Source: Peptococcaceae bacterium
Lineage (GTDB): Bacteria > Bacillota > Peptococcia > DRI-13 > UBA5745
Reading direction: 5' to 3'
Length of the DNA stretch: 37,603 nt
Assembly: GCA_031264885.1 (NCBI GenBank)
Contig: JAISDM010000081.1
Span: 1 to 37,603 of the forward strand
Below the pieces are notes generated by a model. That model saw only the letters and a list, made by a program, of their open reading frames with translations. It ran no database searches and had not been told where the DNA came from. The position numbers and the translations under genes are program-made. Positions 2 to 18,828 of this stretch are shown here, piece after piece. The stretch's first letter is position 1, and each line of letters starts with the position of its first letter.

Positions 2-2953
2 ATTGTGATCCCATCCGGTTTACGCCGGCTTGAGGCGCGCGCATTCTACGGCTGCCGGTTCGAGCGTGTTGTTTTCGAGGAGGGATCGCAGCTTGAATAT
101 ATCGGCGACTCCGCGTTCATGGCCTGCGTAAACCTGAAGCAGATCGACATCCCAGCGGGCGTGGCCAGTATCGGAGACAACGTGTTCAGCGGCTGCGGCG
201 CGCTGGAGAGGGTGAGCTTCGCGGCCGGATCGGTACTCGCGTCTATTGGGAACAGCGCGTTTGCAGGCTGCGGCTCGCTGGAAAGCGTGAATTTTGCGCC
301 GCCTGACATGGAACTGATTTCCATCGGAGACAGCGCGTTCAAATATTGCGAAGCGCTTGCGAGTTTCCCCTTTCCCGCCGGCCTTCAGAGCATCGGCGAG
401 TTCGCTTTCGAGGGGAGCGGCCTTTTGTCCGTGGAGTTCCCCGCCGATTCTGAACTGAATTTATTAAGCGGAGGCGCCTTCCAATATTGCGCCGGTCTCA
501 CCACCGTTGTGCTGCCGGGAGGTTTTTTGACGGATATCTCCACCGAAGCGTTCCGCGGCTGCGAGATGCTGTCGGATGTCCGCGTCACGAATGAGCCCTT
601 GCTGTATATGGACGGCATAGCCCTTGAACAAATACATCCCTACGCCTTCGGCGACTGCCCCGAGCTTCGCGCCGTCATATTGCCGCCCTCCGTGTATTAC
701 ATCGACGACGGCGCTTTTGCCTTTGACACTCCATCCGCGCCTCCGCCGCCGACCGCGATCCACGGTTACTACGACTCCTACGCCCTGTGGTGGGCGAGAC
801 AGAAAGGATATCCGTTCTACGTCGCCCCCAGCAGCGGCGAACTCAAGGCCAACCCGCCTGGCGTCATGTACAAGTATATCCCTTATGAGTTTGTGGCCAA
901 AACCCGTGTGCCGGACAACGAAGGTCTGCGCTTCTGGCTGGAAGACGCCGCCGGTCATCCGCTGACGCTGCCCGAAGGGCTGTATCTCGTGGACGGCGTG
1001 AACGAACCCCGCGCGGATGCCCCGGAGGCTGCCATTCCCGGCACGATTTACGGATCGCCTTTGGATTACACAGACTTTGAGGCCGGCGTCAGCTTTACAA
1101 TGAAAGCGCGGAATATCGGCGCGACCGGCGAGAACGACGCCTTCACCGCCGCGGCGGAGTTCACCGTCAGACTCGCGCCTACGCCGGACAACGCCTGGCT
1201 GGAGGCTTATCTCAACGCCTATCCTTTTTCCGCTGATCCGCTCTACGGCGGCGACGGCAGACTTCCCGCGGAAATAAGCGGGCTTTATGAGGATGTCGGA
1301 GACTTTGTCACGCATATGGAGGGTCCTTTCCCACTGTTCGACAGTTTCTGGATCGACGGACTAAAGAAAGCGGCCAGCGTCCATTATAACGCCGAGGATG
1401 GCAGCACCCGCGTAACGGTTTTGGCCCAAACCGTTCAGGATCTGAATAACGGGGAGCATACGGCGGCGGCGGCTTTCCGCCGGGCGGACGCAAACGCGGA
1501 CACTTACGCGGACTGGTACGCCGGCGGACTTGACGATAAATTGGATGTTGTGGCACAGAATTTCACTGTGAATCTGACGGCGCGCCCCACTGCCGCCGCT
1601 GATCCGGGCGGATCGGGCGGAGACGCGGGCGGATCGGGTGATGCTGGGGGTTCCGGCGGCGCCGGCGATACGGGGAACACCGGAGGTACGGGCGGATCCG
1701 GCGACACCGGTGACTCGGGCGGTACAGACGCGGGCAACACAGGCGATCCCAGCGGCACAGACGGAGCGGGCGGCGCCGGCAATTCCGCGAGTCCGACCAA
1801 TCCCACGAGCCCGACGAATCCGCCGACACCAACGAATCCGGCCAATCCCACGAGCCCGACGAATCCGGCCAGTCCAACAGGTTCGGCAAACCCCACGAAT
1901 TCGCCAAGTCCGACGAATCCGGCCAATCCCACGAATTCGCCGAATCCCACAAATTCGCCGACGCCAACGAATCCGCCAAGTCCGACGGCTCCGGCCAGTC
2001 CAACGAATCCCGCCAGTCCCACAAGTCCGCCGACGCCAACCAGTCCCGCCAATCCCACAAATTCACCGAATCCCAGCAATCCGGCAAATTCGCCGGATCC
2101 CGCCAATCCGACGAATCCGGCCAGTCCAACAAATCCGCCGAATCCGAACGATTCCAGCGACGCCGACAGCGCGGGCGATCCGGGTAATTCCGGCGAAACG
2201 GGCGGCTTAGGCGGCACAGGCGACTCCGGTAATTCCGGTAACTCCGGTAATTTCGGCGGGACGGGCGATCCCGGCGGCGTGGGTAATGCCGGCGGCGCGA
2301 ACAACGCTGGCGACGCGAGCAATATCGGCAACACCGGCAATATTGGCGGCGCGGGCAATATTGAAAATATCGACAGACCGGCCGGTACAAGCAATACCGC
2401 TGTTTCAGCCGGCGCGGGCAACGTAAACAACCCAACCGGCGCGGGCGGAACCGACGGCGCCGACGTAGTTGTTACCGCCGCGAACAATACAGCCGCCGAA
2501 ACCGGCGGCGGAACCACAGTCAGCGGCTTACCCGTGAACGAAAACGGACAGTTCTATTTCGCCATCGACGGCAGCGGCGCCCCGTTTGAAATACGGATAG
2601 ACATACCCCTCGAAGAATTTGAAAACCTGTATTTTGACGGCGCCCTCTGGTCGGCGGGCGGCGACTACGCCCTCCGTTCCGGCAGCACCGTGCTGACGGT
2701 CACGGCGGAACGGCTGGAACGTTATGACGCGGGAGCGCATACCTTCAGCGCGGATTTCCGGTCCGAAACCGTGGAAATCGCGTTCGACCTTATAAAGAGC
2801 GCAGTCTTGCCGGAAGCATTGCCGGCGGTCCTCCCCGCCGGTGAAAAAAACAGCGTCCCGGCAGCGGTAATCGCGGCCGGGAGCCTAGTTGTTCTGTTTG
2901 CCGCTTGCGGCGCGGCCATGTTGAACGCGAAAGCGCGCAGAGCGGCAAAGTAG
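2..2953 (+). CDS. Cell-surface leucine-rich-repeat protein (BspA-type LRR), 5'-truncated by the window edge, with a low-complexity stalk and a C-terminal transmembrane anchor
   Basis: The frame is open to the window edge and no signal peptide is visible. The N-terminal 230 aa carry repeated ~23-aa units of the form 'IGDSAFxGCxxLxxVxFPxGLxSIG'. The centre is Gly-rich and Pro/Thr/Asn-rich. The C-terminus has a hydrophobic helix (VPAAVIAAGSLVVLFAACGAAML) followed by a basic tail (KARRAAK). Confidence 0.8.
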   Translation: MVIPSGLRRLEARAFYGCRFERVVFEEGSQLEYIGDSAFMACVNLKQIDIPAGVASIGDNVFSGCGALERVSFAAGSVLASIGNSAFAGCGSLESVNFAPPDMELISIGDSAFKYCEALASFPFPAGLQSIGEFAFEGSGLLSVEFPADSELNLLSGGAFQYCAGLTTVVLPGGFLTDISTEAFRGCEMLSDVRVTNEPLLYMDGIALEQIHPYAFGDCPELRAVILPPSVYYIDDGAFAFDTPSAPPPPTAIHGYYDSYALWWARQKGYPFYVAPSSGELKANPPGVMYKYIPYEFVAKTRVPDNEGLRFWLEDAAGHPLTLPEGLYLVDGVNEPRADAPEAAIPGTIYGSPLDYTDFEAGVSFTMKARNIGATGENDAFTAAAEFTVRLAPTPDNAWLEAYLNAYPFSADPLYGGDGRLPAEISGLYEDVGDFVTHMEGPFPLFDSFWIDGLKKAASVHYNAEDGSTRVTVLAQTVQDLNNGEHTAAAAFRRADANADTYADWYAGGLDDKLDVVAQNFTVNLTARPTAAADPGGSGGDAGGSGDAGGSGGAGDTGNTGGTGGSGDTGDSGGTDAGNTGDPSGTDGAGGAGNSASPTNPTSPTNPPTPTNPANPTSPTNPASPTGSANPTNSPSPTNPANPTNSPNPTNSPTPTNPPSPTAPASPTNPASPTSPPTPTSPANPTNSPNPSNPANSPDPANPTNPASPTNPPNPNDSSDADSAGDPGNSGETGGLGGTGDSGNSGNSGNFGGTGDPGGVGNAGGANNAGDASNIGNTGNIGGAGNIENIDRPAGTSNTAVSAGAGNVNNPTGAGGTDGADVVVTAANNTAAETGGGTTVSGLPVNENGQFYFAIDGSGAPFEIRIDIPLEEFENLYFDGALWSAGGDYALRSGSTVLTVTAERLERYDAGAHTFSADFRSETVEIAFDLIKSAVLPEALPAVLPAGEKNSVPAAVIAAGSLVVLFAACGAAMLNAKARRAAK
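1603..2480 (+). repeat. Coding low-complexity repeat tract: GGSGD-type Gly-rich flanks around degenerate PTNP/SPTNP 3-codon repeats (about 1785-2150)
   Basis: Reiterated 'ccgacgaatcc / cccacgaattcgcc' units are visible in the DNA. The protein reads PTNPTSPTNPPTPTNPANPTSPTNP... All three opposite-frame ORFs across this tract are repeat shadows. Confidence 0.85.
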
Positions 2954-5224: not shown

Positions 5225-6517
5225 TCACCCATGTGAAAAGGTTTCCATCGCGCGGCCTTTGTATAGCTGGTCCGCGAAATCGGATTCGCCGGGGATGCCG
5301 CAGGCGTCGGCGCGGCAGTGGGCGCAGTGCAGGAACTGTTGGATGTACGGGGCGGCGGCGGCGCGCGCCGCTTCGATTTGTTCGCAGGTGGGCGCGGGGG
5401 TGTCCGCGAATTCATACTGCGGGAGCAGCGGGATGATGTTGTGCTTGGACGCTCCGGCCTCCGATACGGCGCGGGCTATGTCCGCGATGTGACCGTCGTT
5501 GATTCCGGGGATCAGCACCGTGTTGACTTTCACTGTGATTCCCGCCGCCGCGGCTTCGCGTATGCCTGTCAATTGACTGCGGATGAGTATGGTTCCGGCT
5601 TCTTCGCCGCTGACGGCCTTCCCGCCGGTGAGGACGCGGGATACGATTCGGGCTGTGATCTCCGGATCCACCGCGTTCACTGTAACCGTCAGTGTCAGGA
5701 CGCCCACGCCGCGCAGGGCCTCCGCCTTCCCCGGCAGGGCCAGGCCGTTGGTGCTGACGCATTTAATCAGCGTGGGGTAGGATTTGTGGACCAAATGGAA
5801 GGTTTCCATCGCGTGGGGCGACGCGAACGCGTCTCCCGGCCCGGCGATGCCTACCACCGAGAGATCCGGGCATAGCTCCAGCGCCTGCCGGACGGTCTCC
5901 ACGGCATCTTTTGGGGCAAGGATTCCGGACGATACCCCCGGGCGGTTTTCCGTTGGATTGCAGCTTCTGACGCAGAACCGGCACTGTATGTTGCAGGCCG
6001 CGCTGACGGGCAGATGCAGCCGGGCCTTTCGCCTGTTCAGGTGATCGGAGAAGCAGGGATGGGAACGGATATCTGTGACGTTTGAATGGGCAGCCGCGGC
6101 ATTCGAACGGATATCGCCGGCGTTAGAACGGCCGCCGGTGGTACTAGGGCGGGCGTCGGCGCCGGCGGCGTTTGCCCGTCTCCTTGTTTTTTTTAGAAAA
6201 GCCGCGTATCCGTCCAGCAGATCCGCCACAAGGCCGCCGCGCTCCACGACCAATATATTCCTCAGATTCAGTTCCCGCCGCGCGAAATTCCCGATCCGCA
6301 TGGCGATCACCGTTTGGCAGTCCTCGATCAGTTTGAGGGTCTCCGCGAAGGAGACGGCGTTGTGACCGCCTCCTTCGCAGATGGGCGTGTTCTCACGTCT
6401 TTCGACGATTTGCCAGGTATAAGAATCCTCATCGACGTCCGCGATGACGAACTCCGGGCTGCGCCCGAAATGTACGGACACCATCGTGCCGAATTCCGCC
6501 GCTAACGCCACACGCAT
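5225..6517 (-). CDS. NifB-like radical-SAM metallocluster maturase with an N-terminal NifX/NifB-C-type (dinitrogenase FeMo-cofactor-binding) domain
   Basis: The N-terminal ~110 aa (VHFGRSPEFVIADV...IAMRIGNFARREL) resemble the NifX/NafY/NifB-C fold family. Next comes the NifB hallmark HPCFSDHLNRRKARLHLPVSAACNIQCRFCVRS (CxxxCxxC). The C-terminus carries HCAHCRADACG. I chose the ATG at 6517 (AGGAG 8 nt upstream) over the GTG at 6526. Confidence 0.8.
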   Translation of the reverse strand: MRVALAAEFGTMVSVHFGRSPEFVIADVDEDSYTWQIVERRENTPICEGGGHNAVSFAETLKLIEDCQTVIAMRIGNFARRELNLRNILVVERGGLVADLLDGYAAFLKKTRRRANAAGADARPSTTGGRSNAGDIRSNAAAAHSNVTDIRSHPCFSDHLNRRKARLHLPVSAACNIQCRFCVRSCNPTENRPGVSSGILAPKDAVETVRQALELCPDLSVVGIAGPGDAFASPHAMETFHLVHKSYPTLIKCVSTNGLALPGKAEALRGVGVLTLTVTVNAVDPEITARIVSRVLTGGKAVSGEEAGTILIRSQLTGIREAAAAGITVKVNTVLIPGINDGHIADIARAVSEAGASKHNIIPLLPQYEFADTPAPTCEQIEAARAAAAPYIQQFLHCAHCRADACGIPGESDFADQLYKGRAMETFSHG

Positions 6518-6556
6518 AATATTCACTCCTTTGATGTTTCGGCGAGTCCTTAACCC

Positions 6557-7438
6557 TTATATGGCCATAGCCTCGCCGCGCACGTCTCCGCTTTCGATGG
6601 CCAGGATCTGATCCGACCATTCCGCCGCCCAGGCGCGTAAATCCTGGAGGCTCAGGGGATTGGGCGTCTTGGACTCCGTATGGCCGCCGACGCGTTCGGC
6701 CAGCTGCCTGTAGACCTTCGCCTGAGCGGAATCCGGCTGCGCCTCAATGGTGGTTTTGCCGTTCAGCTCGCTTTGGGTCACCGTAATGGAACGCGGGATA
6801 TACTGCATGACCTGAGTATCCGTGCGCGCCGCGAAATCGTCGATGATCGCCTTCTGATAAGTGGAATCCGGAGCCACCGAATTGGCGATGACGCCGCCCA
6901 GAAGCGCGCCGCCTGAGTTTGAGTATTTCTGGATGCCTTTGAACAGGTTGTTCGCGGCGTAAATCGCCATGAAATCCGAGGACGACACGGTGAACACGTG
7001 CTGGGCTATGCCCTCGCGGATGGGTACCGCGAAGCCGCCGCACACCACGTCCCCCAGTACGTCGTAAATCACATAGTCCAAATCCAGTTCCTCAAAGATT
7101 TTTTGCTGCTTCAAAAGCTGCACAGCCGTGATGATGCCCCGGCCCGCGCAGCCCACGCCCGGGGCGGGACCGCCCGCCTCCACGCAGTAGATGCCGTTAT
7201 AGCCGGTAAAAATCGCCTCGTGGGCGTTGAACTTGCCCTTGTCGCGCAGCAGCTCCAGCACCGTCGGGATGTAACTGCCGTCCCGCAGGGTGTTGGTGGA
7301 GTCCGCCTTGGGGTCGCAGCCGAATTGCATCACCTTATAGCCCATATCCGATAGGGCGGCGCTCAGGTTGGACGTGGTGGTGGATTTGCCGATTCCTCCT
7401 TTGCCGTAGATCGCGATTTGCTTGATTTCTTTTGCCAT
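6557..7438 (-). CDS. NifH-family Fe protein (nitrogenase-like reductase component, ATPase)
   Basis: 293 aa. Walker [17 protein letters not shown]. The [4Fe-4S] ligand motifs GVGCAGRGI and [18 protein letters not shown] are present. GCDPKADST is present. RBS GGAGGA lies upstream. Confidence 0.9.
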
Positions 7439-7468: not shown

Positions 7469-9058
7469 TTAAACGGACATTTCCGCGGTTTTGTCCACGA
7501 TGTAGTGGTCGTAGTCTTTTTGGTACCACTCGTCCGCATAGGGCAATTCAATGTTCCGGCTGAGGTTCTTCGAGTAATTCCGGTTGGCCAGGGTGCGGTC
7601 GATGCGCCGGGCCAGTTCGTAGGCGCCCTTATACCCGAAAAATGTGAAACGCTGTGAAAACAGGGCGATGGAAGGAACGCCCAGCTTATTCATCCAGATG
7701 CCCACCCCCGGATGGGAGATGGCGATGTCGGGCTCCAGTTTTTTCACCATATTGACCAATTCCGAACTCTGATTGGAGATCGCGGTGGGAACGTCGCCTA
7801 ATTTATCCTCGATTTCCTGGAAGAGGGCATTCCCGTAGGTGTCATAATTGAAGTTCCGCATGCCCACCACCTTCATGCCGATTTCATCCGCCAGAAGCGC
7901 CGCCGTTCCCACGCGCATGTAGCCGCCGCCGATGATGACCTTCTTGCCTTTGACCCGCTCCTTGATGGGTTCGAGGGCCTCTTTCAGCTTCCGCTCTTCT
8001 TTGTCCAAAATCGCTTCCGCCTCTTTTTCGAGCCCGAAGAATTGGGCGATTTCCATGACGAACTGCTTGGTGGAGCTGCTGCCCACGGGAATGGTGGGCA
8101 ATATATACGGCATGTCGAACCGCCGCTTCAGATATTCCAGGAAGTACAGATCATGCACATGGCACATGGCCACGTTCAGCGCGGCTTCCGTGATCATCCG
8201 CCAATCGTCCGGATGACTGAATTCGACAAAGAATCTCACGTTGAGCCCTATGGCCTCCAGCAGCCTGCGCATCTCCGCCTCGTCCTGTGCGCCGATGGAA
8301 ACCGCGTTGTACAGATTGACCGTGTGATTCTTGCGGTATTTGTATTCCGCCACTTTCAGATCATAGTCCTTGTCGTTCTCATCGATGGGCGTATAATCCA
8401 CGTAGGGGATCGGCTCGAAAGCAAATCCGGCGCGCTGTATGCCGTGATAAACCACATCATAAGCCGATGAAAAAACCCTCGCCTTGAATCCGGGACAGTG
8501 GAGGGGCACCAGGGGCGCGGTGACCTCCGAACGCAAATCGTCCAGCACGCCGTCTATGTCGTCCCCTATGATGGAGGGGGTGCATGTCATCAGCACGAAA
8601 ATCGCGCTGGGGCGGAATCTCTTGTCGGCCTCCAGAATACACCGCCGCAGTTTGTCCTCACCGCCGTTGATGACCTCGGATTCGGAGAGATTCGTGCTGA
8701 ACCAGCGCGCGTTGGACATCTGTTTGCCGCGCTGGGCGCCGTAAAGCCGGATCGTGAAGTCCATGGTGTGGCTCTGGGAACCGCAGCCGATGGGTCCGTG
8801 CATGATAACAACGGAATCTTTCACCGAGAAACCGATCAAGGTCGCCACGCCCATCTGACAGAAGGTGCTCTGCGCGAATGTGCGCTCGCAGTTGGCGAGG
8901 CAGCCCGCGCAGGCGTTGTCAACCATATCGTCGATATGGCCGCCGTAAGAATGCCCCGTGCGCCGGGTGATCTCCCTTTTTTCGGGAAATTTGGTATCAA
9001 AGTTGATCTCAAGGATCCGGGTGTCTCTGCCGGTTTTTTTATCGTTTGATTCTGTCAT
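7469..9058 (-). CDS. Nitrogenase component-1 alpha-like subunit (NifD/NifE-like)
   Basis: 529 aa. D/E-type motifs: FCQMG, MHGPIGCG, LSESEVINGGEDKL, MTCTPSIIGDDI, LHCPGFKA and NVAMCHVHD. An extra N-terminal CAGCLANC motif is present. Confidence 0.8.
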   Translation of the reverse strand: MTESNDKKTGRDTRILEINFDTKFPEKREITRRTGHSYGGHIDDMVDNACAGCLANCERTFAQSTFCQMGVATLIGFSVKDSVVIMHGPIGCGSQSHTMDFTIRLYGAQRGKQMSNARWFSTNLSESEVINGGEDKLRRCILEADKRFRPSAIFVLMTCTPSIIGDDIDGVLDDLRSEVTAPLVPLHCPGFKARVFSSAYDVVYHGIQRAGFAFEPIPYVDYTPIDENDKDYDLKVAEYKYRKNHTVNLYNAVSIGAQDEAEMRRLLEAIGLNVRFFVEFSHPDDWRMITEAALNVAMCHVHDLYFLEYLKRRFDMPYILPTIPVGSSSTKQFVMEIAQFFGLEKEAEAILDKEERKLKEALEPIKERVKGKKVIIGGGYMRVGTAALLADEIGMKVVGMRNFNYDTYGNALFQEIEDKLGDVPTAISNQSSELVNMVKKLEPDIAISHPGVGIWMNKLGVPSIALFSQRFTFFGYKGAYELARRIDRTLANRNYSKNLSRNIELPYADEWYQKDYDHYIVDKTAEMSV

Positions 9059-9062
9059 TTTT

Positions 9063-10409
9063 TTATCTCCCCGCTAACTGTGTGCCGATCAGGTCTTCCA
9101 GCAGATTCAATCCGCCGCGAAAACCCGCGTAGCCTTTTGAAATGATAATTCGGTTGATGATGGGATAGCTGACCGACAGGAAGTTTCCTTTCAAAACCTC
9201 CGCCAGCCGGCGTTCGATGGTGCTGCCCAGGACGAAGGCCGGCGATATGGTGGGATAGTATTCGTCGGCCAGGAACTGCGGCGTGTTCTGCTCAATGTAT
9301 TGTTGGATCTTGAATGTGTCCGTCTCAAACACCAAATCGGGCCGCGTCTCAAATTCGATCTCGCCGAAGGCGCTCCGTATCGCCGCTTCCTGATCCTCAT
9401 CCAGGTCGTCCGTGATAAAAATGTGCGTCGGTATCCATCCGATCTCGTTGTCCAAGTACCTCGCGTAAGGCAGCGCCTGGGTGGCGTTCGCGACGACGAC
9501 GGCGTAATTCTGGAAATCCGTGTCGGCGATGACGTCCGTGGCCCGGTCTATGAAGCTGTAATAATTCTTGATTTCCGCGGCCAGCAATGGATCGACCACG
9601 TTTTTGCTGATCTCAAGCCTGTCGGCGATGAGCCGCGCGAAATTCTCCGTCGCCTTTGCGCCGATGGGCAGATCCGTCACAAGATAATCGATATCGTGGC
9701 TTTCTTTAATGGTCTTTGCGGCTTCCACGCCGTAAACCCGGGAAAGTATAATATTCAGCGAAGCCTCGCCGGCTTTCAGAAGGTTCTCCTGGGTTTGATC
9801 GCTGGTGACGAAGGTGTTGACCTCGATTCCCAATAAGTTCAAAATCCGCTTGAGTTCGGCCAAGTCGCCGCGGAAAAACGGGTCGTAGGCGGGAACCAGG
9901 CCGAGAAGGTTCACCGCTTTCAGGTTTTTTTTCGTTGAAATAGGGATATACTGCAAGAACAATTCTTCAATGAGACGACCGTATCCGTAATAGGAATTCC
10001 CTTTGAACCCGCCGGATTCCAAAAAAATCACCGGTTTGGGCAGCGGCCGCAGGGAATCGACGACGGCCTTGGCGTCGTCTCCGATGATGTCGGTCATACA
10101 TGCCGTGGAAACAACGAATAGGTCGCCTTGCATCACCTCAAAAACGCCCTTGATCTCTTCGCGCAGTTTTTCCTCTCCGCCGAAGATGACCTCGGATTCG
10201 GAAATGTTTGTGCTTGGCATACCGCCGCTGCCGGCATAGCCGGTACCGTAGTACCCGCCCAGCAAGATGCCTTGGGCGAGGGAGCCTCCGCAGCCCTGCG
10301 CTCCGTGAATGATCGGCACCGTCCTGGGCAAAGCGCCTGTGGTGGCGAGCACGCCGCCCAGCATGCAGGAAAAACGGGGCCGCTCAATGGGTTTGTCACA
10401 TATTGCCAT
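9063..10409 (-). CDS. Nitrogenase component-1 beta-like subunit (NifK/NifN-like)
   Basis: 448 aa. K-type motifs: FSCMLGG, IHGAQGCG, ISESEVIFGGEEKL and STACMTDIIGDD. The stop lies 4 nt before the D-like start. Confidence 0.8.
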   Translation of the reverse strand: MAICDKPIERPRFSCMLGGVLATTGALPRTVPIIHGAQGCGGSLAQGILLGGYYGTGYAGSGGMPSTNISESEVIFGGEEKLREEIKGVFEVMQGDLFVVSTACMTDIIGDDAKAVVDSLRPLPKPVIFLESGGFKGNSYYGYGRLIEELFLQYIPISTKKNLKAVNLLGLVPAYDPFFRGDLAELKRILNLLGIEVNTFVTSDQTQENLLKAGEASLNIILSRVYGVEAAKTIKESHDIDYLVTDLPIGAKATENFARLIADRLEISKNVVDPLLAAEIKNYYSFIDRATDVIADTDFQNYAVVVANATQALPYARYLDNEIGWIPTHIFITDDLDEDQEAAIRSAFGEIEFETRPDLVFETDTFKIQQYIEQNTPQFLADEYYPTISPAFVLGSTIERRLAEVLKGNFLSVSYPIINRIIISKGYAGFRGGLNLLEDLIGTQLAGR

Positions 10410-10429
10410 AAAAGATCAGTCTCCTCTCG

Positions 10430-10552
10430 AACGGGATGGATTCCGGGACAAGCCCGGAATGACAGGATGATGGGGTGACGGGATGGAATGACGGGGCGAG
10501 TCTGGCCGCAGTCTGACCCGGAATGACGGAATGATGGAATGACGGGATGGAT
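10430..10552. repeat. Intra-operon repeat spacer with reiterated GGAATGAC / ACGGGATGGA motifs and a TTCCGGG-N5-CCCGGAA hairpin
   Basis: GGAATGAC occurs at 10456, 10485, 10520 and 10536, with GGAATGAT at 10528. ACGGGATGGA occurs at 10431, 10478 and 10542. The hairpin spans 10441-10459. The spacer lies between the cysK stop (10553) and the K-like start (10409). Confidence 0.85.
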
Positions 10553-11485
10553 TTATTCCGGGAAGAGCGCGGTGGATAAATAGCGCTCCCCTGTATCCGG
10601 GAGAATCACCACGATGTTTTGCCCCGCGTATTCCTTCCGCGCGGCGATCTTCGTGGCCGCGAACAGCGCCGCGCCGGAAGAAATGCCCACCAGGAGCCCT
10701 TCGGAGCGCGCGGCCTCTCTGGAAACCTCGAAGGCTTCCTGGTTTTTCACTCGAAAAATTTCATCCACATATTTGCGGCGGAACACTTTGGGAATAAATC
10801 CGGCGCCGATCCCTTGAATCGCGTGGGAACCGGACGGTTCTCCCGACAGCACGGAAGAATCGTAGGGTTCGACGGCGACGACGTGAATGGCGGGATTGCC
10901 TTTTTTCAGCGCCTCCCCGACGCCGGTGACCGTTCCGCCTGTGCCGACGCCGGATATGAAAACGGCCAGGTTTCCGCCGGTGTCCTCCAGTATTTCGGCC
11001 GCCGTGGTGGTCCGATGGATGGCGGGATTCACCGGATTTTCAAATTGCTGCGGTATGAAGGAGTTTTTGATTCGCGCGCTCAGTTCCTCCGCTTTGCGGA
11101 TCGCGCCTCTCATCCCGTCCGCGCCCGGGGTGAGAACCAGTTCGGCGCCCAGCGCTTTCAAAAGCCGCCTCCTTTCCAAGCTCATGGTCTCCGGCATGAC
11201 GAGAATGATTTTGTATCCCTTGGCCGCCGCCACAAACGCGAGCCCGATTCCCGTATTGCCGCTGGTCGGCTCGATGATCGTCGTTTCGCTGTCGATCCGG
11301 CCTTGCTTCTCTCCGTCTTCGACCATGGCGAGGGCGATGCGGTCTTTCACACTGCCGAGGGGGTTGAAATACTCCAATTTCGCGAGGATTTCGCCGGACA
11401 GGTTTTTGCCTGCCGAATATCGGTTCAAATGTAAGAGTGGCGTTTTGCCGATCAATTCGGTCAAGCTTTCCGCGATTTTTGACAT
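10553..11485 (-). CDS. cysK: Cysteine synthase / O-acetylserine sulfhydrylase family PLP enzyme (CysK/CysM type)
   Basis: LIGKTPLL, the PLP-lysine motif [11 protein letters not shown], the [10 protein letters not shown] loop and [10 protein letters not shown] are present. I chose the ATG at 11485 (AAGGAAGGGA 7 nt upstream) over the GTG at 11506. Confidence 0.85.
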
Positions 11486-11545
11486 TCGGATTTCCCTTCC
11501 TTTCACATTTTGTTTCAGAGACTTGTGTGGTCTTAGGCGGTGTTC

Positions 11546-11572
11546 CTTAGGACTTGTTTAACGAGTCCTAAG
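11546..11572 (-). other. Intercistronic 9-bp perfect hairpin (CTTAGGACT-N9-AGTCCTAAG) straddling the permease stop codon
   Basis: Positions 11546-11554 pair with 11564-11572. The permease TAG occupies 11570-11568 inside the stem. No U-tract follows on the minus strand. Confidence 0.5.
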
Positions 11573-12395
11573 CCGTTCCGGACTCGTCCCGCCAGCGGAA
11601 GCTGCGTTTTTCCACCGATTCCAGCACGAAGTTGATCGCGGTGCCGAATATGGCCATGACCACGATATAAGCGTACATTTCCGGGATTTTGAAGTTGGCC
11701 TGATAAAAGAACATGGCGTATCCGAGACCGCTGTTGGCGCCCATCATCTCCGCCGCGATGAGGATCAAAATGGAGAAGGTGGCGGACATGCGCACGCCGG
11801 TGAAGATGAACGGCAGGGCGGCCGGCAGTACCACGGAGCCAAACAGCCTGAGGGATCCCGTTCCCATAGCTCTGGCCGCTTTGACAAGCTGCGGGTCCAC
11901 GCTTCTTACGCCGGCGATGGTATTCAGCAGCGTGGTCCACAGCGCGCCCCACATAATGACGATGATCTTGGACGTTTCCCCGATGCCGAAGAACATCACG
12001 AACACGGGGAGCAGCGCCAGCGTGGGCATGTTGCGGAAGACCTGCAATAATGGATTGACCAGATTCCCGAAGCCCTTGAACCAGCCGATGGCAAGCCCGA
12101 GGGGGATGGCCACCGCGAGGCCCAGAAGGAATCCGAAGAAGGAACGCGTCAGGCTGATCGCGATGTTTATCCATAATTTGCCGCCGGCGGCTTCCCGAAC
12201 CAGCGCGAAAAAAACCCTGGATACGGGAGGGAAGAAGGCCGGCGTCGAGACCAACTCCAGGCGGGCGGCGAGTTCCCACAGGGCGGCGAATATAAAAATC
12301 GCGGCGGTGCTGGTGAAGATTTTTTTGAGCGCCGCGGCGGAAGCGCTTTGTTTGCCGGCCTGTTCAATGATAACGATATCTTTGTTTCTTTTCAT
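11568..12395 (-). CDS. ABC transporter permease, NitT/TauT (sulfonate/taurine/nitrate) family
   Basis: 275 aa from the ATG at 12395 (MKRNKDIVI...). It has multiple hydrophobic helices and a BPD-type EAA-like loop (AARAMGTGSLRLFGSVVLPAALP). The upstream part of the ORF-track ORF is Arg/Pro-rich non-coding read-through. Confidence 0.8.
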   Translation of the reverse strand: MKRNKDIVIIEQAGKQSASAAALKKIFTSTAAIFIFAALWELAARLELVSTPAFFPPVSRVFFALVREAAGGKLWINIAISLTRSFFGFLLGLAVAIPLGLAIGWFKGFGNLVNPLLQVFRNMPTLALLPVFVMFFGIGETSKIIVIMWGALWTTLLNTIAGVRSVDPQLVKAARAMGTGSLRLFGSVVLPAALPFIFTGVRMSATFSILILIAAEMMGANSGLGYAMFFYQANFKIPEMYAYIVVMAIFGTAINFVLESVEKRSFRWRDESGTA

Positions 12396-12441
12396 CTTAT
12401 CCTGCCTGTTGTTTGCTCGTATTAGGCGCCGCGGCGAATCC

Positions 12442-13332
12442 TTACAGCACTGCGGAGGGCGTGATTTCGTCCGCGAGGCTTCGGGGGGCGCCTTCCGGCC
12501 CGGAGCCGGTCTCCGGCGATTCTGTGTCATGCAGCAATTCCCATATCCGGTGTACGATGACGCCGTAATCGGCGGAGGCGCGCGCGTCGGCGTTAAACCG
12601 GGGGCGCGGCAGACGGATATCAACGATGTCTTTGATGCGCCCCGGGCGCGGTGTCATCACGACGACCCTGTCGGCCAGGAGTACCGCCTCCTCAATGCTG
12701 TGCGTGACGAAGATCACGGTTTTTTTTGTTTTGCCCCAGATCTTCAGAAGCTCATCCTGGAGGGTTTCTCTCGTCTGGGCGTCCACAGCGGCAAAGGGTT
12801 CGTCCATCAGAAGCACTTTAGGATCATAAGCCAGGGACCGGGCGATGGCGACCCGCTGCCGCATACCGCCCGACAGCTCGTTGGGATAGCGTTCCTCGAA
12901 GCCGTTCAGATCCACCAGGTCGATGTATGTCCGCGCGATCTCGGTTCGTTCTTTCTTGGGAATCCGCTTGACTTCAAGCCCGTACTCCACGTTGCGCAGC
13001 ACGGTGCGCCATGGAAAAAGAGCGTAGCCCTGCATAATAAAGCCTCTGTCCAGATTCGGCCCGGCGACTTCGCGGCCGTCGATGGTGATGCTTCCGCCCT
13101 TGGATTTGGTCAGCCCCGCGATAATATCCAACAGTGTGGATTTGCCGCATCCCGAAGGCCCGACGATGGAGACGAAGGCGCCGTCTTCTATGGAAAGGCT
13201 GAAACTCTCCAGGGCGACAAACTCTTCAAGCTGTTTCTTCCCCGGATTTCTTATATAATAGACTTGCTTCAGATTGTTGAGGATAATCTTCGCGTTACCG
13301 GCGCTTCCCAAAGCCGCTTCCATCAATGTCAT
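12442..13332 (-). CDS. ABC transporter ATP-binding protein, NitT/TauT family
   Basis: Walker A GPSGCGKSTLL, signature LSGGMRQRVAIARSL, Walker B LLMDEPFAAVD. The start is ambiguous. The ATG at 13332 overlaps the binding-protein stop (TAATG). The ATG at 13323 sits 11 nt from GGGAGG. Confidence 0.8.
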   Translation of the reverse strand: MTLMEAALGSAGNAKIILNNLKQVYYIRNPGKKQLEEFVALESFSLSIEDGAFVSIVGPSGCGKSTLLDIIAGLTKSKGGSITIDGREVAGPNLDRGFIMQGYALFPWRTVLRNVEYGLEVKRIPKKERTEIARTYIDLVDLNGFEERYPNELSGGMRQRVAIARSLAYDPKVLLMDEPFAAVDAQTRETLQDELLKIWGKTKKTVIFVTHSIEEAVLLADRVVVMTPRPGRIKDIVDIRLPRPRFNADARASADYGVIVHRIWELLHDTESPETGSGPEGAPRSLADEITPSAVL

Positions 13333-14414
13333 TACCTCCCGATTTCCGCGTCGGAGGCGGGCGGGTCGTTCGGCACGAATTGGTTGGTGTAACTCTCTTC
13401 GGGCGCAATGTCGCCAGGCGCCCAATAGCCCAATTCCTCGGACAGATCGAACCATAACTGTCCCCATTCCGGACGAATGTTTTTTTCCTGGCAATAGGAG
13501 TTGGAGCTGACCTCATCCGGTTCCAATCCCAGGTATTCCGCGCCTACCACCCTTGAATAGTCCGGGTTGGCTTCCATAAAAATCCTGGCCCGGTATGTGG
13601 CGTTGACGAAGCCCTGCACAATATCCGGATGTTCTTCGATAAAGGCGTCGCTGAACCCGCGCACAGCCAGGCCGCCTGCCGGCGTACCGACGACATCGTA
13701 GCTTTTGGCCGCCATGCGAACCCCTCCGGCCGCCAGGGCCACGCCGGCAAAGGGCGTATGAGAAGTTGTGGCGTCGATCTGTCCGTTGACGAGGGCCTGC
13801 TCAATCTGGCCGGCCTGGGGCATGACGACGTATTCCACCGATGCGGGATCGAGGCCTCTTTCGGATAAATACTTCGTGATAAATCCGTCAGTACAGACGG
13901 CCAGACCGCTAATCCCAACCTTCTTGCCGGCAAAGTCCTCGATGGATTGGATATCGCTGTCTTCCCGCACCAAGTATGTGATATGGGGATTGTCGGGATC
14001 ATCCACGAATCCGGGCGCCACAGCCAACGGACTCAGTCCCGCCAGCCGGGCCATCGCCACCTCCGTCAGATGCCCCTGAGTAAAAACGTCGATATCGCCT
14101 TGCTCCAGCGCCTGAAACTGTGTGATGCCCTGACCCAGCGTGCCGATATAGTCGATTTGGATGCCCTCATCCTCGAAGAACCCCAGTTTGTCGGCGATGA
14201 TGGTTTCACTGAAGGTGGTTTGGGTCACCGCGCGCAAGGTAAAAAGTTCACTGCCGCCGGTTCCGGCGCTGCCGGCGCCTGAATCGCCGTTCCCGTTCGC
14301 CGCCGCGGCGCCGGAACCCGAACCGCCGCAGCCCGCCGCCGCCAAAACAAACAGCAAGGTCACCGCAGCCGTTAATAATCTCTTTGGACGAATCATTGAT
14401 TTAGAATATTTCAT
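13332..14414 (-). CDS. Lipoprotein substrate-binding protein, NMT1/SsuA/TauA-like (NitT/TauT family)
   Basis: Lipobox LAAAGC follows a hydrophobic signal, then a Gly/Ser/Ala linker. The fold-family assignment rests on gene context and on length and pattern. It is the first gene of the operon. Confidence 0.7.
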   Translation of the reverse strand: MKYSKSMIRPKRLLTAAVTLLFVLAAAGCGGSGSGAAAANGNGDSGAGSAGTGGSELFTLRAVTQTTFSETIIADKLGFFEDEGIQIDYIGTLGQGITQFQALEQGDIDVFTQGHLTEVAMARLAGLSPLAVAPGFVDDPDNPHITYLVREDSDIQSIEDFAGKKVGISGLAVCTDGFITKYLSERGLDPASVEYVVMPQAGQIEQALVNGQIDATTSHTPFAGVALAAGGVRMAAKSYDVVGTPAGGLAVRGFSDAFIEEHPDIVQGFVNATYRARIFMEANPDYSRVVGAEYLGLEPDEVSSNSYCQEKNIRPEWGQLWFDLSEELGYWAPGDIAPEESYTNQFVPNDPPASDAEIGR

Positions 14415-14874: not shown

Positions 14875-16053
14875 ATGCGCGATGATCAAAATAAAAGCGA
14901 CCGATATGATTTTGACGCCGGACTTGATCGCCGCGGAACCAACTGCGTGAAATGGGATACCATTGAAGAAGGATATATTCCGATGTCTATCGCGGATATG
15001 GATTTTGGGACGCCGGCGCCGATTATAGAAGCGATCCGGCGCAGACTGGATCACCCCGCGTTCGGGTATGGCATCCGGAATACGGAGATGGTTGACGCGG
15101 TGATCGCGTGGTTTGGGCGTACATACGACTTTGAGCTGGACCGTTCCTGGATTGTTCCGCTGACCGGCATTTATTCCGCGCTCGCTTTCTTCTCCAGTCT
15201 GACGGACGGCGATGTGCTGACCGCGACGCCTAACTATCCGCCGATCCTCAGAGGGCCGGAACGTGTCGACCGCGCTTGCGTCTTTTCTCCTATGAAGAAG
15301 GCGGCGGAGACAAGGCTGGCGCGTTATGAGCTGGATTTCGAGGATCTTGAGCGTAAAGCCGCGGCGGATGTGGGCATGTATTCCATGTGCAGTCCGCATA
15401 ATCCCATCGGCCGGGTGTATACAAAAGAAGAACTGGAACGTTTGAGCGATTTTGCGCGCAAGCGGAAACTGGTTGTTCTGTCAGATGAAATACATAACGA
15501 ACTGATTTATGATCATCCGCATACGCCGTATTTGACGGTTGAGGGCGGGCTTGAATCCTCGGTGACGCTGATTTCCGCCGGGAAAACATGTAATATTCCC
15601 GGAATCCCCGCCGCGCTGGCCATTGTTCCGGACGAGGCGTTACGCGGGCGGGTCATCGCCGCCGCGTCCGGATTTGGCGGCGCCGGCGCGCTGAACACAG
15701 AGGCGCTGCGCGCGGCGTACGCGGAATGCGACGATTGGAAAAAGGCGCTTGTTTCCTATTTAAAAGAGAACCGAGATTATTTAGAAACCGAATTTCTGAG
15801 GCGCTTCCCAAAAATCCGGCTGACCCATACGGAAGGAACTTACTTGCAATGGGTGGATTTCAGCGGCTATGGCATTTCAAACGCCGCTCAATGGTTATTG
15901 GATCATCCAAAAATCGTGGCTCACGGCGGCAAAATGTTCGGCGGCGCGGAAAGCGAGGCGCGGATTAATTTTGGGTGTCCGCGTTCGCTCATTAAAGAAG
16001 CGCTGGACAGAATGGAGACGTCGCTGACGAGTTCTGAATTGAACGCGGTGTGA
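14875..16053 (+). CDS. patB: PatB/MalY-family PLP-dependent C-S lyase (cystathionine beta-lyase type, aminotransferase class I/II fold)
   Basis: The N-terminus YDFDAGLDRRGTNCVKWD is typical of MalY/PatB. The PLP-lysine motif is ISAGKTCNIPG. 392 aa. Confidence 0.8.
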   Translation: MRDDQNKSDRYDFDAGLDRRGTNCVKWDTIEEGYIPMSIADMDFGTPAPIIEAIRRRLDHPAFGYGIRNTEMVDAVIAWFGRTYDFELDRSWIVPLTGIYSALAFFSSLTDGDVLTATPNYPPILRGPERVDRACVFSPMKKAAETRLARYELDFEDLERKAAADVGMYSMCSPHNPIGRVYTKEELERLSDFARKRKLVVLSDEIHNELIYDHPHTPYLTVEGGLESSVTLISAGKTCNIPGIPAALAIVPDEALRGRVIAAASGFGGAGALNTEALRAAYAECDDWKKALVSYLKENRDYLETEFLRRFPKIRLTHTEGTYLQWVDFSGYGISNAAQWLLDHPKIVAHGGKMFGGAESEARINFGCPRSLIKEALDRMETSLTSSELNAV

Positions 16054-16081
16054 AAAAAGAAAAACCGGGAGGAGACTGACA

Positions 16082-18322
16082 ATGAGCGCGACAGATCAGC
16101 GTAATACGGCGGAGTTCCAGACATATAAGACCGGCGTGGTCGTGCCGGGTATCTGCGGAATTTGCGCGTCCAGCTGCCCGGTGGATCTGACCATACAGAA
16201 TCAGAAGATTGTGCGTGTGGAAGCGTCCAAAATACAGGGCGGAAGCGGGTATCTCTGCGCCAAAGGCGCGGCGGGGCGCGGCTATGTCTATCGCGAGGAT
16301 CGGCTCAAGACTCCGCTGAGACGCGTTGGAGCGCGTGGCGGGAACGCCTTTGAGCCCATCACATGGGACGAGGCTTACGCTGAGATCGCGGCAAAAACAG
16401 GCGCCATAAAATCAGCTTACGGCCCGGACAGTGTGGCTTTTTACACGGGTTATTCCAAATGGTACCGGCCTTTGCTGCACCGGCTGGCGCACAGCTTTGG
16501 CACGCTCAATTACGGCACCGAGTCCTCTAGCTGTCACCAGGCGTCTGTCATGGCTAACCTGGTCAGCGCGGGCGTCTATTGCCGGCCGGATGTGGCGAAC
16601 GCGGAGCTTTTGATCGCCTGGGGCGTAAATCCCTTCCACAGTGGGAATTTTTCCGGTGAGATGATGGAAATTCAGAAGGAAAAAGGGCTGCGCGTGCTGT
16701 GTGTGGATCCGCGGGTGACGCCGTATACGCAGCAGTACGCTGATATTCATCTGCGCCCGAAGCCTGGAACGGACGGCGCGCTGGCTCATTTTTTCGCGAA
16801 ATATTTGATCCGCGCGAAAAAAACCGACGCTGAATTTATTGAGAGGTACGTTCACGGTTATCCGCAATACGCGGAATATGTCGAAGCTTTTGACATTGCT
16901 TCCGTGTCCCGCGTTACGGGCATATCCGAGAAGGAACTGCGGGCCGCCGCTCAGCTTATCGCCAGACACAGCCGGCGCTTTACGATACAGGTGAGCCAGG
17001 CCGCGATCACGCATCATATCAACGGGTTTCAATCCTATCGCGCGATCATCGCCTTATGCGCCATTACGGGAAATGTGGATCGGGAAGGCGGGCTGATTCC
17101 GATGGAGTATCCCGGGAAGGACGACCGGCTGAACAAGCCGCGCCTTTTAACAGAGGAATTTATTCAGCAAACCCGGCCCGATCACGCCAAACCGAAGATC
17201 GGTTCCGAGCGGTTCCCCCTTTGGTCGGAACTGATCGATGAATTTCAGGCGATGGATCTTTGGCGCAATATTTTGGAAGGAACACCCTATCCCATTAAGG
17301 CGGTCATCGCCTTTGGAATGAACGTTCACATGTTTCCGGGAAACGCCAAACTCTTTGAAGCCTTGAGCGCGTTGGACTTCTATGTGGATGTGGATATTTT
17401 TGACACGGATTCGGCAAAATACGCGGATATCATTCTGCCCGCGTGTTCTCCCTATGAGCGCACCGAGCTTATCGGCGCCATGGGCGGCGGCATACGTTAT
17501 TCCCAGCCCGCGATTCCTCCGCTGTACGAATCCCGTTCGGACGCGGACATCATCAGTCAGTTGGCGGCGGCGTTCGATTTGGACGATCCTTTGCTGAGAA
17601 GAGGCTATGACGCTTGCAGCCGTTCTATGCTGCGGGAAATCGGACTTACAATGGACGATTTGAAGGAATCTCCCGCCGCGCGGCGGATTCCGGGTAAACT
17701 GCCATATTTCACGGGTCATTGCCTGCGGAACGGGTTTGATACGCCGACCGGCAAGTACGAGTTGTATTCGGAACGTATCGCGAAATATCAGGATCGGTAT
17801 CCGTATGATCCGCTGCCGGTATTTGTGCCGCCGATTGAGGCGGAGGACGAAGGGGATGAACGGTTTCCGCTGACGCTGACAGTGGGCGGCAGGCTGCCTC
17901 ACGCGTTCCACTCCCGTTTCCACAATGTACGCTGGGCAAGAGCGCTGCGACCGGACGCAGCCGCGGATATTCATCCGGGCGACGCCGGAAGAATGGGGAT
18001 CCAACAGGGCGATTCTATCGCCATAGCCACAGCAAACGGGGAGATTACCGCCAAAGCCAATCTGACATGGATGGTTCCGGAAGGGTCTGTCTTTATGTTC
18101 CAGGGTTATGTGGAGGCGGACGCCAACGCGATTCTGGGAGCGGAACATCTGGATCCTTATTCCGGATTCCCGGGATACCGTTCCAACAAGTGCGCGGTCA
18201 GAAAGATAAACGCCGTGGCGCCGGTCAAAATTACAAAGGCCGCGAAACCGGTCAAGTTGGCCAAAGCGGCCGGAATCGCAAAGGAGCCGCGAAAGGAATT
18301 GGAGGTGAGCGTCCGAAAATGA
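16082..18322 (+). CDS. Molybdopterin (Mo/W-bisPGD, DMSO-reductase superfamily) oxidoreductase catalytic subunit, cytoplasmic
   Basis: 746 aa. The N-terminal FS0 cluster motif is CGICASSCPV...YLCAKG. There is no twin-arginine or signal sequence. The domain order is typical of the family. The C-terminus is a Lys/Ala-rich tail. Confidence 0.8.
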   Translation: MSATDQRNTAEFQTYKTGVVVPGICGICASSCPVDLTIQNQKIVRVEASKIQGGSGYLCAKGAAGRGYVYREDRLKTPLRRVGARGGNAFEPITWDEAYAEIAAKTGAIKSAYGPDSVAFYTGYSKWYRPLLHRLAHSFGTLNYGTESSSCHQASVMANLVSAGVYCRPDVANAELLIAWGVNPFHSGNFSGEMMEIQKEKGLRVLCVDPRVTPYTQQYADIHLRPKPGTDGALAHFFAKYLIRAKKTDAEFIERYVHGYPQYAEYVEAFDIASVSRVTGISEKELRAAAQLIARHSRRFTIQVSQAAITHHINGFQSYRAIIALCAITGNVDREGGLIPMEYPGKDDRLNKPRLLTEEFIQQTRPDHAKPKIGSERFPLWSELIDEFQAMDLWRNILEGTPYPIKAVIAFGMNVHMFPGNAKLFEALSALDFYVDVDIFDTDSAKYADIILPACSPYERTELIGAMGGGIRYSQPAIPPLYESRSDADIISQLAAAFDLDDPLLRRGYDACSRSMLREIGLTMDDLKESPAARRIPGKLPYFTGHCLRNGFDTPTGKYELYSERIAKYQDRYPYDPLPVFVPPIEAEDEGDERFPLTLTVGGRLPHAFHSRFHNVRWARALRPDAAADIHPGDAGRMGIQQGDSIAIATANGEITAKANLTWMVPEGSVFMFQGYVEADANAILGAEHLDPYSGFPGYRSNKCAVRKINAVAPVKITKAAKPVKLAKAAGIAKEPRKELEVSVRK

Positions 18323-18828
18323 GTGAAAGAGTCATAGCGTTTAATTTTCATCCTGAATTGTGCGTTGGCTGCGGGCGATGTATCACCACTTGTCTGGATG
18401 TCAATGATATTGACCTGGACAAGTTTTTGCCGCTTCGAACATTGACTGTCAAGGAGTCCATACGTGACGGCGGTAAGATCCGGATTGAATACTACACCGC
18501 GGCGTGTATGCACTGTGAAGATATGCCCTGTGCCAAAGCGTGCCCTCAAGGCTGTTACCGAAAAGACGCGCGGACGGGACTTGTGATTCTTGATAATTCG
18601 GAATGCGCCGGATGCGGCAAATGCGCCGCCGTCTGCCCTTTTTCCGCCATTAAGTTTTGTGAGCGCAAGGCGGTCAAGTGTACGGGCTGTATTGACCGGG
18701 TGCGGGAGAACTTACTCCCGGCTTGTGTCGCGTGCTGCTCCAGAAAGGCCATTACCGTGGACGAACGGAATCTGGTACTGCGGAAAGGCCGCAGACAATT
18801 GAAACAGGCTTTAAGAGCCAGGGCTTAG
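18319..18828 (+). CDS. 4Fe-4S ferredoxin-type electron-transfer subunit (DmsB/PsrB-like)
   Basis: The ATG at 18319 overlaps the upstream TGA (ATGA), and GGAGGTGAG lies at 18301. Four Cys groups are present: CVGCGRCITTC, CMHCEDMPCAKAC, CAGCGKCAAVC and CTGC...CVACC. The ORF-track start at 18067 lies inside the previous gene. Confidence 0.85.
   Translation: MSERVIAFNFHPELCVGCGRCITTCLDVNDIDLDKFLPLRTLTVKESIRDGGKIRIEYYTAACMHCEDMPCAKACPQGCYRKDARTGLVILDNSECAGCGKCAAVCPFSAIKFCERKAVKCTGCIDRVRENLLPACVACCSRKAITVDERNLVLRKGRRQLKQALRARA

Follow-up and report, generated by a model that had tools for sequence, protein, structure and literature searches.

We analysed a stretch of 37,603 nucleotides from a Peptococcaceae bacterium (GenBank assembly GCA_031264885.1, contig JAISDM010000081.1, positions 1 to 37,603; hereafter the window). 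It encodes on its minus strand an adjacent pair of nitrogenase-like proteins: a K-like (beta) subunit of 448 amino acids (9063-10409; Pfam PF00148, E 1.7e-61) and a D-like (alpha) subunit of 529 amino acids (7469-9058; PF00148, E 6.5e-76), whose gene starts 4 nucleotides downstream of the K gene. With a probability that we put at about 70%, this pair is the catalytic α2β2 component of a Group IV nitrogen fixation-like (NFL) enzyme, with metal sites of the type found in methylthio-alkane reductase (MAR, formed by MarD and MarK) and a role in organosulfur C-S bond cleavage. The metal-site architecture rests on sequence and on homology to a solved structure, and the reaction is read from the genomic context.

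P-cluster cysteines on both subunits

A preliminary description of this DNA had matched the cysteines in FCQMG, GPIGCG and MTCTPS of the D-like protein to alpha-62, 88 and 154 of nitrogenase, and those in FSCMLG, GAQGCG and TACMTD of the K-like protein to beta-70, 95 and 153. All six strings are present, and the proposed equivalences are kept in our alignments. More specifically, Cys67 of the D-like protein (D; 8858-8860, this and all codons below on the minus strand), the first P-cluster ligand, corresponds to MarD Cys66, NifD Cys62 and NifE Cys37; D Cys92 (8783-8785) to MarD Cys91, NifD Cys88 and NifE Cys62; and D Cys159 (8582-8584) to MarD Cys158, NifD Cys154 and NifE Cys124. On the K-like protein (K), Cys15 (10365-10367) corresponds to MarK Cys32 and NifK Cys70, Cys40 (10290-10292) to MarK Cys56 and NifK Cys95, and Cys104 (10098-10100) to MarK Cys121 and NifK Cys153. 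In the MAR structure (PDB 9FMG), MarD Cys66/91/158 and MarK Cys32/56/121 are the P-cluster ligands (PMC12552129; PMC13474568).

The codon coordinates of the ligand residues were checked against the window sequence, and the equivalences were obtained from four types of alignment: pairwise phmmer comparison with PDB chains, comparison of a 36-sequence profile hidden Markov model (HMM) with the PDB, hhalign comparison with the verified NifD and NifE of A. vinelandii, and a multiple alignment made with L-INS-i. The ligand equivalences agree across all four. The cysteines listed in the preliminary description do fall on the columns of P-cluster and cofactor ligands.

Conservation was assessed in 103 homologs from databases, the most distant of them 38% identical, and in 95 D and 82 K homologs taken from genome loci. 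D Cys67, Cys92 and Cys159, together with the cofactor ligand Cys299 described below, are invariant in both D sets (103/103 and 95/95), and K Cys15, Cys40 and Cys104 in all 82 K homologs. Because the ligand cysteines are invariant across these sets, their match to the known ligands is not a matter of chance.

Predicted anchoring of the active-site cofactor

The Cys275-like residue that had been noticed in NVAMCHVHD is D Cys299 (8162-8164). It aligns with NifD Cys275, MarD Cys270 and NifE Cys250, is invariant as stated above, and is by this alignment the ligand of cofactor Fe1.

The D-like protein had also been described as lacking an equivalent of NifD His442, and this holds. The string IALFSQRF (D residues 464-471) contains no histidine, and NifD His442-Ser443 has no counterpart in the window D family, where both residues fall in a two-residue gap of the hhalign alignment; the statement that there is no His442 equivalent is therefore correct. 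Likewise, across the 95 genome-locus D homologs no histidine is conserved on the NifD His442-type loop. While position 442 itself is empty, a conserved histidine ligand does exist on another loop. D His449 (7712-7714, in DIAISHPGVG) pairs with MarD His429, on loop I, in the phmmer, profile HMM and L-INS-i alignments, and is invariant in 103/103 database homologs and 94/95 genome-locus homologs.

MarD His429 binds Fe8 of the [Fe8S9C] cluster (PDB 9FMG; PMC12552129). Because it sits on loop I, away from the NifD loop, earlier sequence analyses missed this ligand (PMC12552129). The MarD variants C270A and H429L/F are inactive, and MarD His450, which lies on the NifD-type loop, is dispensable (PMC13474568). 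Since D His449 is invariant and aligned with MarD His429, the cluster would be anchored as in MarD, and the ‘differently anchored’ cofactor of the preliminary description is different only relative to NifD.

Two further residues adjoin this site. His302 (8153-8155) and Asp303 (8150-8152), three and four residues after Cys299, are both invariant in the window clade; MarD has Leu-Ser at these positions and NifD has Ser278. As a pair specific to this clade, His302-Asp303 may act in catalysis or proton relay beside cofactor Fe1.

With six aligned interface cysteines and the Cys299/His449 pair, the earlier proposal of two clusters, one of P-cluster type and another at the active site, remains the best reading, and we predict an [8Fe-7S] and an [Fe8S9C] cluster for the window pair.

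A conserved N-terminal cysteine segment

The preliminary description placed the motif CAGCLANC (CxxCxxxC) on an N-terminal extension of the D-like protein and considered an additional Fe-S site possible. The motif is present as D Cys50, Cys53 and Cys57 (8888-8911, minus strand), but it does not lie on an extension when compared with NifD and MarD, in which the first P-cluster cysteine is residue 62 and 66, respectively, against 67 in the window protein.

The motif is the local form of an N-terminal element of three to four cysteines. In the 103 database homologs, Cys53 is conserved in 102, Cys57 in 31 and Cys50 in 18, and the full CxxCxxxC is found in 15. At least three cysteines are nevertheless present within the 35 residues before Cys67 in 99 of these homologs, with a mean of 3.3 against 0.66 expected from overall cysteine content. 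Only one position is fixed, at -14 from the first P-cluster cysteine, and the spacing relative to Cys67 differs by subclade (-24/-19/-14; -17/-14/-10; -26/-19/-14/-10).

Comparison with related proteins suggests a role in cofactor handling for this segment. D Gly52-Cys53 pairs with NifE Gly24-Cys25 in hhalign, and NifE Cys25 and NifD Cys45 share the Cys53 column in the L-INS-i alignment. NifE Cys25 is a ligand of the surface-bound, transient L-cluster in holo-NifEN(out) (PMC13031127). In the MarD family, N-terminal cysteines are kept as well (Cys42 in 115, Cys46 in 90 and Cys54 in 120 of 120 sequences), and the N-terminal region of MarD forms a flexible cover over the cofactor (PMC12552129). 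These N-terminal MarD cysteines are mentioned neither in the paper on the MAR structure or its supplement nor in the 2026 review.

The strongest alternative to our reading concerns this segment. Cys50, Cys53 and Cys57, perhaps with a nearby histidine or another fourth ligand, might bind an additional permanent Fe-S cluster or a metal ion as a third redox or structural site. The five-fold excess of cysteines upstream of Cys67 would fit such a site, as would the AlphaFold2 (AF2) model of D, in which residues 21-60 are ordered (predicted local distance difference test, pLDDT, 86-92); that the cysteine count is retained although the positions move also hints at a binding site under selection. We nonetheless consider this unlikely. 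Cys53 is the single fixed position, spacing varies from one subclade to another and the full motif is clade-specific; NifE Cys25, the homologue of Cys53, ligates a cofactor transiently; and MarD has an analogous triad, yet the ~32 Fe per MarDK tetramer correspond exactly to two P-clusters and two L-clusters (PMC13474568), so that the iron of MarDK is already accounted for. The segment in the window protein is probably one version of a conserved element that captures the cofactor or serves as a lid, and not a third permanent Fe-S site.

Cluster identity and relation to MAR

A second alternative is that [4Fe-4S]-type clusters occupy the six interface cysteines and that D carries no L-cluster, as predicted for IsrDK or for enzymes like dark-operative protochlorophyllide oxidoreductase (DPOR). 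The protein sequence by itself does not discriminate between one [8Fe-7S] cluster and two [4Fe-4S] clusters. However, IsrD keeps a single alpha cysteine, the Cys88 equivalent, and is without the Cys275 and histidine ligands (PMC11423573), all of which are invariant in the window D family. In addition, the operon contains a NifB-like gene with all NifB motifs, and the invariance of Cys299 and His449 would be hard to explain without a cofactor. We regard this alternative as very unlikely.

MAR itself offers the closest solved structures. The best PDB match of D by phmmer is MarD (9fmg_A/9d9u_A, E ~5e-61) and that of K is MarK (9d9u_C, E 6e-66). The AF2 model of D has a mean pLDDT of 90.8, and its top Foldseek match is again 9fmg_A, with a template modelling (TM) score of 0.89 by target length, compared to 0.72-0.75 for NifD. 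At the sequence level, D is ~28% identical to Rhodospirillum rubrum MarD, whereas each of the best 120 MarD relatives listed, heliobacterial, Pelosinus, Clostridium and Thermoanaerobacterium proteins among them, shares at least 73% identity with it. In a maximum-likelihood tree, D falls in an 83-row clade (Shimodaira-Hasegawa-like approximate likelihood ratio test, SH-aLRT, 97) that is sister to a 14-row MarD clade (SH-aLRT 100); the latter also holds a MarD-like paralog from the window genome.

Several active-site differences separate the two clades. The MarD Arg428-His429 pair and Trp195 are invariant in 120/120 MarD-family sequences. The arginine before the loop-I histidine is never found in the window clade, which has Gly, Ser, Ala or Thr there instead (Ser448 in the window protein); this clade-wide absence contrasts with the 2026 review, according to which Arg428 is kept almost throughout Group IV. 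The Trp195 column is variable in the window clade, with Phe196 in the window protein, and in the L-INS-i alignment MarD His194 is replaced by Val195 and MarD His375 by Asn404. The window D family also carries a specific insertion of 20-28 residues (residues ~212-243, ~8330-8425, minus strand; AF2 pLDDT 95-97, with a helix at 232-244), and the spacing between the third P-cluster cysteine and the cofactor cysteine is 127-140 in the window clade vs 110-112 in the MarD clade.

A genuine MAR (Group IV-C), releasing methanethiol from dimethyl sulfide, ethyl methyl sulfide or methylthio-ethanol, would account for the structural matches, the identical set of cluster ligands and the sulfur-related context. 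Orthology to MAR is contradicted, however, by the ~28% identity, the separate and well-supported clade and the lack of Arg428 and Trp195. The missing His194, the change of His375 to Asn404 (PMC13474568), the family-specific insertion and a linkage to cysK rather than to an O-acetylhomoserine sulfhydrylase likewise speak against MAR. Expression in R. rubrum of systems from Groups IV-A, D, E and F, which are members of non-IV-C clades other than the window protein, gave no MAR activity (PMC13753814). This reading is highly improbable. The window pair is probably a Group IV NFL system with MarDK-type metal sites, and its published subgroup is probably IV-D or IV-E.

Organization of the locus

According to the open reading frame (ORF) list of the window, the minus-strand genes form a single closely packed row that runs from an importer through a NifB-like gene. 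The row begins with a NitT/TauT-type ATP-binding cassette (ABC) importer (11568-14414), composed of an NMT1-type binding protein (13332-14414; Pfam NMT1), an ABC ATPase (12442-13494; Pfam ABC_tran) and an ABC permease (11568-12623; Pfam BPD_transp_1). It continues with cysK, encoding O-acetylserine sulfhydrylase (10553-11506; TIGR01139, 433 bits, above cut-off), directly upstream of the K gene. The best model class by profile scores is alpha-type for the 529-amino-acid protein and beta-type for the 448-amino-acid protein, so that the gene order is K-D-H-B. The spacer between cysK and K is 143 nucleotides (10410-10552), vs 4-30 nucleotides at the other junctions of the K-D-H-B row.

Downstream of D lies a NifH-like reductase of 293 amino acids (6557-7438, minus strand; TIGR01287, 398 bits; PF00142, E 1e-97), with the P-loop GKGGIGKST and the cluster ligands Cys97 and Cys133; MarH has Cys97/Cys133 with identical numbering (PMC12552129). 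The last gene of the row encodes a NifB-like radical S-adenosylmethionine (SAM) maturase with a NifX-type domain (5225-6526, minus strand; TIGR01290, E 8.6e-87; PF02579; PF04055) and the motifs HPCF, CNIQCRFC and HCAHCRADACG. The NifX-type domain (residues 14-107, PF02579) is N-terminal in this protein vs C-terminal in canonical NifB. In the matching module of Ruminococcus albus, a separate NifX-like ORF of 114 amino acids (L015:6330-6674) is found just upstream of cysK, and both the fused and the split form of NflX/MarB are reported to be functional (PMC13753814).

Other genes surround the operon. A large BspA-type leucine-rich-repeat protein is encoded near it (window 2-2953); a 2026 paper on termite spirochetes reports that Group IV nifK/nifD, leucine-rich-repeat proteins and cysteine synthase are encoded in a single operon (PMC13067680), and termite-gut metagenome-assembled genomes (MAGs) are the source of the closest relatives of the window genes. 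On the plus strand, a divergent operon (14875-18828) starts with a gene of the class I/II aminotransferase fold (C-S lyase-like), followed by genes for a cytoplasmic molybdopterin oxidoreductase with a ferredoxin-like subunit and a peptide-binding protein. As a whole, the neighbourhood looks like a sulfur-scavenging island.

Distribution and sulfur context

More than 586 genome matches to the window clade were found, and 80 related loci from named genomes were compared for gene order. In about 50 of these 80 loci, cysK stands directly upstream of K-D, and H, B and ABC-transporter genes are usually near K-D. Among the carriers are Family XIII and Treponema MAGs from termite guts, R. albus, [Clostridium] fimetarium, Ruminiclostridium cellobioparum, Paenibacillus and Gorillibacterium; cultured carriers of the cysK-K-D-importer module include R. 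albus 8, Gorillibacterium timonense and Paenibacillus sinensis. Among the loci checked, those of R. albus, Gorillibacterium and a Bacillota MAG likewise have NMT1-type binding proteins encoded beside K-D.

The window genome is a 3.26-Mb MAG, 96% complete, and holds six nitrogenase-like D/K pairs in five loci. No canonical nifDK or nifEN was found in this 96%-complete MAG. Contigs C84, C91, C114 and C37 carry further nitrogenase-like genes. C84 has a four-gene D-K-K-D array, in which a MarD-like pair with the Arg-His motif is followed by a K-D pair of the window superclade, and C91 encodes a NifH-D fusion of 777 amino acids followed by a K-like gene.

This 96%-complete MAG has no match to PF01077, the siroheme sulfite/nitrite reductase domain, and none to PF01507, the PAPS (3'-phosphoadenosine-5'-phosphosulfate) reductase/CysD/CysH family. 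PF01077 is absent from 7/20 carrier genomes, including both R. albus isolates. The host is probably unable to assimilate sulfate or sulfite and dependent on reduced or organic sulfur, a dependence that fits its many NFL systems.

The last and least credible alternative is that the pair is a NifEN-like scaffold or maturase supplying cofactor to another nitrogenase-like pair of the genome, as the alignment of Cys53 with the NifE surface ligand, the six D/K-like pairs with their D-K-K-D array and the roles proposed for such arrays by Dos Santos et al. (PMC3464626) might suggest; we dismiss it because K keeps three P-cluster cysteines (82/82), whereas NifN contributes only Cys44 to the O-cluster (PMC13031127), just as the preliminary description had argued against a pure maturation scaffold, because His449 is a strong second ligand where NifE has a weak one, Gln419 (PMC13031127), and because the operon has its own H, B, cysK and transporter genes, cysK-K-D being a self-contained module in many genomes.

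Proposed mechanism

We hypothesize that an organosulfur compound would be imported by the NitT/TauT-type transporter. The NifH-like reductase (NflH) would deliver electrons in an ATP-driven manner to the [8Fe-7S] P-cluster and from there to a homocitrate-free, all-iron L-type cofactor, which the NifB-like maturase (NflB) would make and insert without NifEN. The N-terminal cysteine segment, through Cys53, would capture the incoming L-cluster or latch a lid over the cofactor. Reductive cleavage of a C-S bond would then release sulfur at the sulfide or thiol level, to be fixed onto O-acetylserine by CysK. Such an enzyme would belong to a clade sister to MAR that appears to be almost always accompanied by cysK and a NitT/TauT-type importer.

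A more far-reaching proposal, which we offer tentatively and consider less probable than not by some distance, is that the N-terminal segment is a built-in capture site, passing the L-cluster from the NifX-NifB fusion to the Cys299/His449 pocket, and that the cysK-linked clade is a new catalytic type. A built-in capture site would explain maturation without NifEN. If this were true, the cysK-linked clade would consist of L-cluster enzymes that pass sulfide-level sulfur from imported organosulfur compounds directly to CysK.

Several points weigh against the assignment as an organosulfur-cleaving enzyme with MAR-type metal sites. Two [4Fe-4S] clusters, or a P-like variant, could sit on these six cysteines instead. 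The MarD partner of Cys53 is unstable, being Cys42 by HMMER vs Cys54 by spacing and L-INS-i, and because the two methods disagree, the placement of MarD Cys42/46/54 relative to Cys50/53/57 is left ambiguous. As for the substrate, NMT1-type proteins bind many ligands, so that the transporter does not identify it, and the inactivity of Group IV-A, D, E and F systems in R. rubrum gives no pointer to it and could also be explained by failed maturation. Finally, the absence of PF01077 from the window genome may be due to an incomplete MAG, and the domain is present in 13/20 carrier genomes, including the two closest relatives; the argument for sulfide over sulfite is therefore only suggestive.

Comparison with known systems

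The ligand inventory described here is a known signature, found in a member of an uncharacterised, sulfur-linked Group IV clade. As early as 2012, Dos Santos et al. described NFL pairs with three P-cluster cysteines on each subunit, a Cys275 equivalent and no His442, which adjoin cysteine synthase or O-acetylhomoserine sulfhydrylase (PMC3464626), and in 2025 the MAR structures located the ‘missing’ histidine on loop I (PMC12552129). Our analysis goes modestly beyond this literature with the clade-wide absence of Arg428, the invariant His302-Asp303 and the insertion, and the N-terminal cysteine segment aligned with NifE Cys25. Its value lies in placement: the window provides a compact operon, complete from importer and cysK to K-D-H-B, from a Group IV clade that is large, widespread and not MAR, and uncharacterised NFL clades have been named as the main open problem of the field (PMC13474568). 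The active-site differences, the cysK linkage and the N-terminal cysteine segment offer handles for a substrate search and for the study of NifEN-independent cofactor insertion.

A. vinelandii NifDK shares the fold with the window pair, and its Cys62/88/154, Cys70/95/153 and Cys275 all have invariant counterparts there. It differs in that His442 falls in a gap, NifD Gln191 is replaced by Phe196 and His195 by Tyr200 in D, and the long N-terminal extension of NifK is absent from K. A bona fide nitrogenase (Nif/Vnf/Anf DK) is ruled out, as there is no counterpart to His442, Gln191 or His195.

NifEN has in common with the window pair the alpha-subunit cysteines, the equivalent of NifE Cys250 and the N-terminal Gly-Cys. 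It differs in the single interface cysteine of NifN, compared to three in K, and in Gly400, the NifE residue in the His449 column.

IsrDK (Group IV-F) and NfaDK (Group IV-A) likewise belong to Group IV NFL and come with B, H, D and K genes, and Isr further resembles the window module in its Ssu-type ABC importer and its linkage to sulfur assimilation. Membership in IsrDK is ruled out since IsrD, compared by its published description only, is without the cofactor ligands and window D has all of them. In E. proavitum NfaD, the Cys146-Cys257 spacing of 111 (numbering of PMC13474568) is MarD-like and argues against a group IV-A system of this type, given the 127-140 of the window clade; the insertion of the window D family is absent from MarD, from NifD and, by published numbering, from NfaD.

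The closest comparison is with MarDK of R. rubrum (PDB 9FMG, 9D9U). Both systems have the same fold, six P-cluster cysteines, the cofactor cysteine and a loop-I histidine that replaces NifD His442, and neither has homocitrate-related residues. They also share H and B partner genes, a cysteine-rich N-terminal segment and a sulfur-assimilation context. In contrast, the mar genes are ordered B-H-D-K and linked to metY-type sulfhydrylases, whereas the window module is ordered K-D-H-B and linked to cysK. MarK Cys52 is without a counterpart in K, and Trp195, which lies near belt sulfide S2B and is mutationally essential in MarD (PMC13474568), is Phe196 in the window protein.

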